Part shown: positions 6,001-8,460 of the stretch, piece after piece
Layout of the letters: each line of letters begins with the position of its first letter
How positions within the stretch are numbered: position 1 is the stretch's first letter
Virus record (IMG/VR): IMGVR_UViG_2541047932_000017
Location: 1 to 8,460 of that record
DNA from: a virus
Lineage: Duplodnaviria > Heunggongvirae > Uroviricota > Caudoviricetes
Length of the DNA: 8,460 nucleotides
Reading direction: 5' to 3' (one strand)
Made by a program: the position numbers

Positions 6001-8460
6001 GCAGTCAGAGGAGGCGTCCTCGTCCTCGGCCTCTGCGGCCGCTCAAAAAGCCAGTGAGTCATTACAAAGTGCAGCAGATGCTGAGTTGTCAAAAAAGACG
6101 GCAGAAAGTGCAGCCGGTAATGCAGCCAGGGATGCAACGACCGCAACAGAAAAAGCCCGGGAGTCAGCAGAAAGCGCACAGTCAGCGGAACAAAGCAGGA
6201 TAGCGGCGGAAGAAGCCGTAAACCGAATCCCCACCGTGGTGGGACCTCCCGGGCCAAAGGGGGAACAGGGGCCCGCTGGCCCTCAGGGGCCGAAGGGAGA
6301 TAAAGGAGAGCGTGGAGACACCGGTCCGGCAGGGGCAACCGGTGAACGGGGGCCGACAGGTGATGCTGGTCCGGCAGGCCCGCAGGGGCCGAAAGGTGAC
6401 AGGGGAGAGCGGGGAGAGACCGGTCTGACGGGAGATGCAGGTCCACAGGGGCCAAAGGGAGATACCGGTGCGGCAGGCCCGGCAGGCCCACAGGGACCGA
6501 AAGGAGAAACAGGTGCGGCTGGCCCGGTGGGGGCAACCGGACCTCAGGGACCGAAGGGCGACCCGGGGGAGACACAAATCCGTTTTCGTCTGGGGCCGGC
6601 GAGCATTATTGAGACAAACAGCAATGGCTGGTTCCCGGGTACAGATGGTGCGCTCATCACCGGACTGACCTTTCTTGACCCCAAAGATGCCACACAGGTT
6701 CAGGGGCTGTTTCAGCATTTGCAGGTCAGGTTTGGTGACGGGCCGTGGCAGGATGTTAAGGGGCTGGATGAAGTGGGCAGTGATACAGGCAGAACAGGAG
6801 AATGACATGAATATACTAAAAAAACTTATGCAGCGTCTGTGTGGTTGCGGAAAGCATGATGGCCGTGAACACGTGCAGTCGCTTACAGCACAACTGCGAC
6901 TGGGGCCGGCAGACATCCTGGAGTCCGATGAGAATGGTATTATCCCGGAGCAGGCCAGGGTAATCACGCAGGTGGTGATACTGGATGCGGATAAAAAGCA
7001 GATACAGTGTGTGGTAAGACCACTGCAAATCCTGCGTGCTGACGGGAGGTGGGAAAATATTGGCGGAATGAAATAGCCGACAGCTTCACAAAAACCGGAG
7101 TCCGGCTCCGGTTTTTGTTGTCATGTCATGGTGATGTTTGTTAGGAAACCAAAGGTGGCAAAACTGCTGGAGGTTTTGTGGTTGAGTATGCCAATATAAT
7201 TAATAGATTAAAGAGTTAGTTGTGAAGAAAATATGGATAAACAGGACGACGAATGCTTTCACCGATAAGGACAACTTTCCATAACTCAGCAAATATAGTG
7301 CAGAGTTCCCCCTGTCAAACGGTTTCTTTTGCAGGAAAGGAATATGAGTTAAAGGTCATTGATGAAAAAACGCCTATTCTTTTTCAGTGGTTTGAACCTA
7401 ATCCTGAACAATATAAGAAAGATGAGGTTCCAATAGTTAATACTAAGCAGCATCCCTATTTAGATAATGTCATGAATACGGCAAGGATAGAGAGTGAGCG
7501 TATGATAGGTGTTTTTGTTGATGGCGATTTTTCATTCAGTCAAAAGGTTGCTTTTTCAAAACTGGAACAAGATTTTGAAAATATAATGATAATATATCGG
7601 GAAAATGTTGATTTCAGCATGTATGATAGAAAACTATCAGATATTTATCATGATATTATATGTGAGCAAAAGTTACGCTCTGAAGCCAAAAGAGATGAAT
7701 ACTTGTTGAATCTGTTGGAGAAAGAGTTGAGTAAAATTTCAAATGCGCAGGATTCTTTGATTTATATGTATGCAGAGAAGAGAGATCATACATGGTTTGA
7801 CTTCTTCAGAAATTTAGCCTTATTGAAGGCAGGAGAAATCTTTAGATGCACAGATAACACAAAGAATCATGGGGTTTTATCCGGTGAGGGGTGTATATAT
7901 CTTGATATGGATATGATGCTTACAGGTAAGCTTGGTGTAATGCGTGCTCCAGATGGAATTGCAGTACATGTTGATCGTCGTAATGACAGTGTAAATATTG
8001 AAAATGGTGCAATAATTGTTAATCGTAGTAATCATCCGGCTTTACTTGAGGGGTTGTCTTTTATGCACAAAAAAGTAGATGCTCATCCATATTATGATGG
8101 ATTAGGAAAAGGAATTAAGAAATATTTTAATTTTACTACATTGCATGATTACAATCATTTTTGTGACTTTATTGAGTTTAAACACAAAAATATTATTATG
8201 AACACAAGTCAGTACACAGGAAGTTCATGGTAAAACCACCTCCTGTGGAGGTGGTTGCTTGCAGTCAGGTGTTTCGGGTCTGTGGCTTTTTGTGTTCTCT
8301 GGTAAGTGGTTGCTATTCTTTTGTGTTGTGTATCTCTGTTTCTATAGTTTTAGATAGCCATGTCATCTCAGTAGCTGCGAGTTTTAGTTTTGGGGTTCTG
8401 TCTCCTGCTCCGGGTGGACGCATGTCAAAAGTGCAGGATTTTCTGCTGAATACTGTGTAG

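Follow-up and report, generated by a model that had tools for sequence, protein, structure and literature searches.

A small gene coupled to the side tail fiber gene

The window analyzed here, the whole stretch of 8,460 nucleotides (nt) at positions 1 to 8,460 of IMG/VR virus record IMGVR_UViG_2541047932_000017, is the tail end of a lambdoid prophage of the enterohemorrhagic Escherichia coli (EHEC) type. Within it we investigated ORF89, an open reading frame (ORF) of 89 amino acids (aa) plus a TAG stop on the plus strand (6807..7076; ATG at 6807, TAG at 7074-7076), which directly follows the side tail fiber gene stf. The latter encodes 439 aa (5486..6805, plus strand) with the Pfam domains phage_tail_N (residues 3-135), Collagen, and Phage_fiber_C (PfC, residues 365-428), an architecture (PfN, coiled coil, collagen repeats, PfC) of the EPclA type. 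ORF89 encodes a stand-alone PfC protein, composed of an N-terminal leader (residues 1-27; 6807..6887, plus strand) and a PfC domain (residues 28-89; 6888..7073, plus strand; PF06820, E = 2e-35).

A first-pass annotation of the window had placed the start of this ORF 1 nt past the stf stop codon and behind a good ribosome-binding site, and had taken the two genes to be translationally coupled. Both observations hold. A single base (C6806) separates the stf stop TGA (6803..6805, plus strand) from the ATG of ORF89, and a Shine-Dalgarno sequence, AGGAG (6796..6800, plus strand), is located inside the last stf codons, 6 nt upstream of this ATG. Of 81 related loci chosen by ORF89, 79 keep the TGA-C-ATG junction, as do all 74 full-length copies in a sample chosen by Stf, which confirms a real ORF tightly coupled to stf; the small ORF of Salmonella overlaps the fiber gene by 14 or 23 nt. 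The best explanation is that ORF89 is a genuine late gene, probably translated in step with stf via the AGGAG and the stop-1nt-start junction.

Downstream of ORF89 we identified a perfect 13-bp hairpin with a T-run (7088..7118, plus strand; folding energy -25.5 kcal/mol, z = -6.2), found by a combination of repeat finding and folding. A promoter and terminator scanner had missed it since its T-run belongs to the stem. We read this hairpin as an intrinsic terminator, which would terminate the stf-ORF89 unit and mark the end of the module shared among the loci described below.

ORF89 duplicates the distal domain of the fiber

The PfC domain of Stf (residues 365-428; 6578..6769, plus strand; PF06820, E = 3.6e-36) is the globular distal end of the fiber and its trimerization domain. 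When searched against Pfam, both segments matched PF06820 over the whole 64-position model, with bit scores of 121.4 for ORF89 and 123.8 for Stf at a gathering score of 25 bits, and are thereby members of the family. In a direct BLASTP comparison, ORF89 (residues 29-88) and Stf (residues 366-427) shared 23 of 62 residues (37%, E = 2e-11). The alignment over about 60 residues proposed in the first-pass annotation is therefore significant on formal comparison, and the paralogy is true.

The exact 11-mer noted earlier in direct orientation, CTGGGGCCGGC, was confirmed at 6590..6600 in stf and at 6900..6910 in ORF89 (both plus strand), 310 nt apart and on homologous L-G-P-A codons of the two PfC domains. 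Taken alone the 11-mer is marginal, with a shared word of at least 11 nt occurring in 26 of 2000 shuffles. DNA identity between the two copies is just 52.8% over the 180 aligned nt; the duplication is therefore old and visible at the protein level, rather than a recent DNA repeat.

PF06820 was the sole Pfam family returned for ORF89. Caudo_TAP gave no match at E <= 1, in agreement with the earlier remark that the ORF sits at the position of lambda tfa without resembling Tfa, and the NCBIfam search gave no match either.

The gene has been described before, in contrast to its earlier portrayal as the least explained coding element of the window, which overstates the case. ORF89 is the homolog of ORF68 (ECs1229) of the Stx2 phage Sp5, an 89-aa PfC-only ORF behind the fiber gene ORF67 that was described, deleted, and discussed by Mondal et al. 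in 2016 (PMC5155283). In that study plaque formation and lysogenization on K-12 were abolished in only nine deletion mutants, and ORF68 was listed among the nonessential late genes. The authors found no frameshift signal and suggested ORF68 as "an intragenomic reservoir sequence" for fiber variation (PMC5155283). ORF89 also matches phrog_576 (an 89-position profile) end to end, residues 1-89 on positions 1-89 (E = 5.1e-59), and belongs to this family. The gene and one hypothesis on it are thus already known; the comparative data presented here are new. The record of phage 434 labels the ORF "tail fiber assembly chaperone" without a supporting note in the record, and we found nothing further in the literature on the side fibers of phage 434 or 2B8. 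A mention of ECs1229 in a microarray study was uninformative.

The small gene is conserved more strongly than the fiber tip

We used a sample of sites chosen by the downstream hairpin and not by ORF89 itself. Among 105 full-length copies in this sample, 101 were intact, and 24 further sites hold just a 3' stub; stf reached at least 350 aa in only 60 of 84 of the hairpin-anchored loci. For ORF89 as a whole, the ratio of nonsynonymous to synonymous polymorphism (pN/pS) was 0.19, with values of 0.08 for the PfC domain and 0.35 for the leader. The ORF89-anchored sample gave similar values (0.13, 0.10, and 0.34, respectively) and a pN/pS of 0.27 for the PfC domain of Stf. These ratios indicate that ORF89 is under strong purifying selection and thus a working protein-coding gene. 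Replacements among prophage copies in the PfC domain of Stf cluster at positions 8, 9, 16, 21, 40, 44, 46, and 64 (counted from IRF, with which the last 75 Stf residues start). No other position of the domain varies. This pattern suggests that the surface of the fiber tip has a small variable patch.

The leader is more variable than the domain. Its basic start (M.I.KK..) recurs in most copies, is absent in a Citrobacter protein (P0075), and is altered in a Salmonella protein (P0205). The leader cysteines are not conserved, and Salmonella copies have a linker shorter by 10 residues. Codons 4-6 contain a slippage-prone A7 run (6818..6824, plus strand). Of the four full-length copies that are disrupted, at least two (L108 and L145) lack one base of this run. 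Such A6 variants place the body of ORF89 in the stf frame behind the TGA, and their translation could start at Met8. A database cluster of 414 member sequences is headed by an 82-aa form of ORF89.

Family history

Two clades can be distinguished: the small PfC proteins, from E. coli, Citrobacter, and Salmonella, which share 61-84% identity with one another, and the fiber PfC domains, with 26-38% identity between the two clades. Between E. coli and Salmonella, identity is 62-66% for the small proteins and only 38-39% for the fiber PfC domains. Since the two clades are distinct, the comparison indicates an old duplication of which both copies were co-inherited and evolved at unequal rates, the small protein being the slower one.

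The family is narrow. We found 173 proteins among 5.8 billion, all from Escherichia or Citrobacter, and ten more in Salmonella; the PfC profile retrieved only 87 clusters among 1.84 billion representatives. Database relatives of the ORF89 protein are up to 99% identical to it and carry the RefSeq label "phage tail fiber C-terminal domain-containing protein." By tblastn, ORF89 was 100% identical to copies in three IMG/VR prophage contigs (L002, L003, and L005).

Fiber tip, small gene, and terminator are exchanged as a module

Of 5426 complete E. coli genomes, 698 contain a 751-bp region including this locus, at 7694 places in total and at a median of 12 places per genome. It was also present in 297 phage records, mainly of phages converting their hosts to Shiga toxin (Stx) production, along with phage 434. 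Among 80 loci chosen by the PfC domain of Stf, 74 hold a full-length ORF89 directly downstream. Co-occurrence of ORF89 with PfC-ended fibers across phage types is thus near-obligate.

The fiber contexts in which the pair occurs are of different kinds. In a comparison with the short-tailed Stx phage TL-2011c, homology was confined to 6256-7126 of the window (92.5% nt identity), a stretch that comprises the last collagen repeats, the PfC domain, ORF89, and the hairpin. In Salmonella we found the pair with unrelated fibers, in three further contexts: a lambdoid Stf without collagen (L206; phage_tail_N, Phage_fiber_2, and Phage_fiber_C), a 212-aa fiber behind baseplate genes of the gpV, gpW, Baseplate_J, and DUF2612 types (L202), and a J-fused fiber (L203). 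Together with the EPclA-type Stf of the window and the TL-2011c fiber, this amounts to five fiber contexts. At L202 and L206 the small gene is followed just by genes of the opposite strand, and at L203 a same-strand ORF comes next; no Tfa-family gene was seen at any of the three. A hairpin similar to that of the window follows the small ORF at L202. This distribution indicates that the PfC-ended fiber, the small PfC gene, and the terminator move as one module across lambdoid, short-tailed Stx, and P2-type-baseplate fibers, and that the small gene of the module always occupies what appears to be the place of Tfa, in E. coli and in Salmonella. At L206, a 452-aa gene of the GDSL-lipase family lies between J and the PfC-ended stf (3193-4551 of that locus); it may encode a surface-polysaccharide esterase tied to the fiber module.

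The flanks of related loci diverge straight after the hairpin. There the cargo varies and includes genes for NleG, NleC, SopA-like proteins, and others. Because the cargo behind the hairpin differs among related loci, we regard the hairpin as a boundary of cargo insertion. Six loci (L086, L087, L109, L134, L143, and L155) contain a second ORF89 3' end (VVRPLQIWRADGEILAG) and hairpin about 868 bp downstream of the first, and in other IMG/VR loci all that is left of ORF89 is a 3' stub joined to unrelated sequence. The stretch of the ORF89 3' end and terminator seems to be a recurrent recombination joint for cargo.

Predicted structure of the ORF89 protein

An AlphaFold2 monomer prediction from an 11-sequence alignment was unusable (predicted local distance difference test, pLDDT, of 51.6) and improved to 72.5 once the Salmonella homologs were added. 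The resulting model shows a helix (residues 3-12), a low-confidence disordered linker, and an all-beta domain (residues 30-85), with block-mean pLDDT values of 70-87 over residues 31-89. The fold match was to the fiber chain of Mu and not to the Mu chaperone. The scores of the model are weak and consistent with a fiber-end domain, but nothing more. Sequence searches of the Protein Data Bank with ORF89 gave nothing meaningful, and PADLOC and Rfam scans of the ORF and its region returned no matches.

ORF89 as a putative partner of the fiber tip

The small protein evolves slowly, is always coupled to a fast-evolving tip, is exchanged together with it, and sits at the place of Tfa. Therefore, we propose a dedicated partner of the tip. 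The product of ORF89 is a short leader followed by a PfC domain, the small all-beta domain also found at the globular distal end of the fiber. Like the fiber PfC, this domain would trimerize, and the trimer would bind the PfC end of the Stf trimer, acting there as an assembly helper, as a noncovalent distal cap, or as both. Such a role would parallel that of the Tfa-type proteins of lambda, P2, and Mu, except that the partner would be a paralog of the tip itself. The fast-evolving PfC of Stf would carry the host specificity, and the slow small protein would recognize a conserved core of the fold. That PfC-like units can sit in series in cis along a fiber follows from a 565-aa metagenomic fiber from a Logan assembly (P0149, among the 87 clusters retrieved by the PfC profile), in which a collagen stretch comes after four PfC-like repeats in tandem (..VVVLDADAKTATGQMGILQVRRADGTWMEIPALKG..). 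A fiber-chaperone module shared between morphotypes, whose chaperone is dispensable in one phage and may be a transient cap, provides a precedent (PMC10579305).

That ORF89 encodes a co-translated trimeric partner of the fiber tip, be it a cap or an assembly helper, is the account we favor, although we would stop short of calling it probable. A wider version of it we put forward a little more tentatively still: the ORF89 family may constitute a distinct class of fiber partners, in which a free-standing tip paralog replaces Tfa, docks noncovalently on the distal PfC trimer like one more "repeat," serving as a cap or as a template for assembly, and is swapped together with the tip among prophage tails of the siphovirus, podovirus, and myovirus types in E. 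coli and Salmonella, with most Shiga-toxin phages among them.

Several points weigh against a tip partner. A deletion mutant of ORF68 in Sp5 still forms plaques and lysogens on K-12, though ORF67 is essential (PMC5155283); because of this, ORF68 is not an essential chaperone in Sp5. Recombinant EPclA and its PfC domain trimerize in E. coli without the small protein (PMC3368898). We found no literature report of the small protein in virions, and the running text of the phi24B paper, as distinct from its virion proteome table, makes no mention of it. Finally, we infer the binding of ORF89 to the fiber, and the structure prediction covered only the monomer.

Alternative roles

In order of decreasing likelihood, the first alternative is the published one (PMC5155283): ORF89 would mainly be a DNA donor, i.e., a spare tip cassette or "intragenomic reservoir," from which Stf would acquire a different tip by recombination or deletion, involving either the two PfC copies or ORF89 and the collagen repeats. 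The 11-mer common to both copies on the L-G-P-A codons is compatible with such an exchange, and its products exist in nature. The 343-aa Stf protein P0185 consists of PfN, a coiled coil, and a short collagen stretch joined in frame at GERGP|ADILE to an ORF89-type PfC, resulting in a full-length fusion; P0062 has the same junction, and P0137 is a reverse chimera. To this extent the survey of related stf 3' ends weakly supports the earlier suggestion of a spare or alternative tip module. These fusions are, however, very rare, with a cluster of 4 members for P0185 against 7694 places in the 698 E. coli genomes. None of the best 120 relatives from the search of 5.8 billion proteins exceeded 131 aa, and some of the 14 relatives read in sequence were chimeras arising by rearrangement (decay). 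Moreover, the 52.8% DNA identity is too low for efficient homologous exchange, and a silent donor would need neither a conserved ribosome-binding site, ATG, and leader nor a pN/pS of 0.08-0.19, features that argue for a working protein. The split between the small-protein and fiber clades predates the divergence of the E. coli and Salmonella versions, and the two have remained apart. We consider it unlikely that ORF89 serves mainly as a donor, and a purely silent cassette is likewise unlikely. The suggestion that ORF89 is a remnant of tip-exchange recombination was not supported, given two separate old clades and a pN/pS of 0.08-0.10 in the domain; the old two-clade paralogy and the purifying selection also exclude a recent recombination scar.

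Alternatively, the ORF89 protein could act unbound to the fiber, as a soluble trimer that is released at lysis and blocks the receptor on debris or neighboring cells, thereby reducing superinfection or the number of progeny lost. A free-standing copy of the fiber end that faces the receptor, made late and in step with the fiber, would suit this function, as would the dispensability of the ORF for plaque formation in the laboratory. But by inspection the protein has no signal peptide and no valid lipobox and could act only after lysis. It is also much more conserved than the fiber PfC (66% against 39% identity between E. coli and Salmonella) and only about 35% identical to it, and would thus not track a changing specificity. 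With no PADLOC match in addition, we regard a free mimic of the tip as improbable.

Another possibility is that ORF89 and Stf chains enter one PfC trimer, giving truncated or altered fibers, with ORF89 as a regulatory or dominant-negative subunit. The shared fold and the tight co-translation are in line with mixed trimers, and PfC is known to drive trimerization (PMC3368898). In such a trimer, however, the collagen helix would be one or two chains short, and the two domains are about 35% identical with separate evolutionary histories. It would also be hard to see why a poison subunit should be so strongly conserved in all copies, and we regard this role as very unlikely.

Hardly credible, finally, is a nonfunctional leftover of a former fiber 3' end or an alternative Stf C terminus made by frameshifting or readthrough: the ORF89 frame is indeed open for 44 codons upstream, from 6675, and the A6 variants do bring the ORF89 body into the stf frame behind the TGA, but ORF89 has its own ribosome-binding site and ATG, is intact under purifying selection and of old paralogy, and lies in the +1 frame relative to stf, in which we noticed no slippery site by eye (no systematic scan was made) and Mondal et al. 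report no frameshift signal (PMC5155283), and the A6 forms are rare mutants, at 3 of the 105 full-length copies.

Genes surrounding the stf-ORF89 unit

The window opens with the 3' end of an otherwise unassigned tail gene (1-411). Between this gene and J, a gene for a 175-aa Cu,Zn superoxide dismutase is encoded in antisense (1126-599, minus strand; Pfam Sod_Cu, E = 7e-32), which looks like cargo within the tail operon. J, the gene for the tail tip and host specificity protein, spans 1260-4735 as two separate ORFs, one at 1260-3719 and the other at 3476-4735. The break near 3452-3460 looks like a 1-nt deletion, with the window reading CTG-ACA there and differing from J-type proteins; on the Ig_J_second domain model, the second J ORF starts at position 28. 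The split reflects either a tail-defective prophage or a sequencing error. Despite the split J, stf and ORF89 are intact. The gene lom (4768-5427) lies between J and stf.

On the other side of the unit, a gene for a type III effector of the NleB/SseK family (7253-8233; PF24688, E = 8e-171) starts 135 nt past the stf-ORF89 terminator.

Implications for Shiga-toxin phages

Virtually all lambdoid and Stx prophages of EHEC-type E. coli carry the small gene, which is part of the host-recognition end of phages responsible for the spread of Shiga toxin and type III effectors. The receptor apparatus of these phages is unsettled, with a 2026 cryo-electron microscopy preprint on phi24B arguing that the fiber tip is not the BamA binder. 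If ORF89 is a cap or helper bound to the tip, it would be a missing component of the receptor-recognition apparatus and a second, non-Tfa solution to the assembly of fiber tips, and it would become a practical consideration for engineering or expressing collagen-like fibers. If it is merely dispensable, it would be an ordinary conserved accessory gene. The comparative results sharpen its role into a directly testable claim.

Comparison with known systems

Two mechanisms that vary fiber tips resemble the locus superficially, in that a second version of the fiber C-terminal coding region lies just downstream of the first. In diversity-generating retroelements the two versions would be a template repeat and a variable repeat, nearly identical except at template adenines and close to a reverse transcriptase gene; the copies in the window are 52.8% identical in DNA, their mismatches involve all four bases, and no reverse transcriptase is found among the window ORFs. 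An invertible segment of the Mu G or P1 C type does not fit either, with ORF89 on the same strand as stf and no invertase in the window, where we found only short inverted repeats, the terminator hairpin being the best. In contrast to both mechanisms, the copies here are in direct orientation and the second one is an independently translated gene.

Lipoproteins that block receptors, such as T5 Llp or Cor, have a signal peptide with a lipobox and do not match ORF89 either. Inspection of MNILKKLMQRLCGCG revealed no hydrophobic core; R10 falls inside the would-be h-region, before L-C-G-C, and the cysteines are replaced in the Salmonella homologs.

The position of ORF89 is that of the Tfa proteins (lambda Tfa, P2 gpG, and Mu gp50), which also lie just after the fiber gene, are coupled to it, and are exchanged together with the tip. 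According to the title of PDB entry 5yvq, the Mu chaperone was crystallized in complex with the fiber. Unlike these proteins, ORF89 is a paralog of the fiber tip itself, about half their size and without sequence similarity to them, and the family searches described above do not place it among them.

A module of a fiber and a small partner that is shared between morphologically distinct phages is known from the Alteromonas phages A5 and V22, where the partner is dispensable for functional fibers in one phage and was proposed to be a transient cap (PMC10579305). The sequences are unrelated to those studied here, and the chaperones of A5 and V22 resemble intramolecular chaperone domains rather than the tip of their own fiber. 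Binding is documented in that system, whereas for ORF89 we infer it.

With the PfC domain of EPclA-type fibers, ORF89 shares the Pfam domain PF06820, and the Stf of the window has the EPclA architecture. EPclA itself is a trimeric dumbbell, the PfC domain of which is trimeric on its own and nucleates the refolding of the collagen helix, as shown by Ghosh et al. in 2012 (PMC3368898). ORF89 differs in carrying the domain alone, behind a 27-residue leader and without a shaft, and in belonging to a separate, slower clade that is about 35% identical.

The closest counterparts are ORF68 of Sp5 and its equivalents in other short-tailed Stx phages. Like ORF68, ORF89 is a PfC-only protein of 89 aa encoded directly after a fiber gene, and it is a small PfC-only ORF coupled downstream of a PfC-ended fiber gene in the same sense. 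The copy in TL-2011c is 91% identical to ORF89 and has the same stop-1nt-ATG junction and terminator. The difference lies in what precedes the pair: in the window ORF89 follows a lambdoid EPclA-type Stf, and only the last stretch of about 870 bp is common to both.

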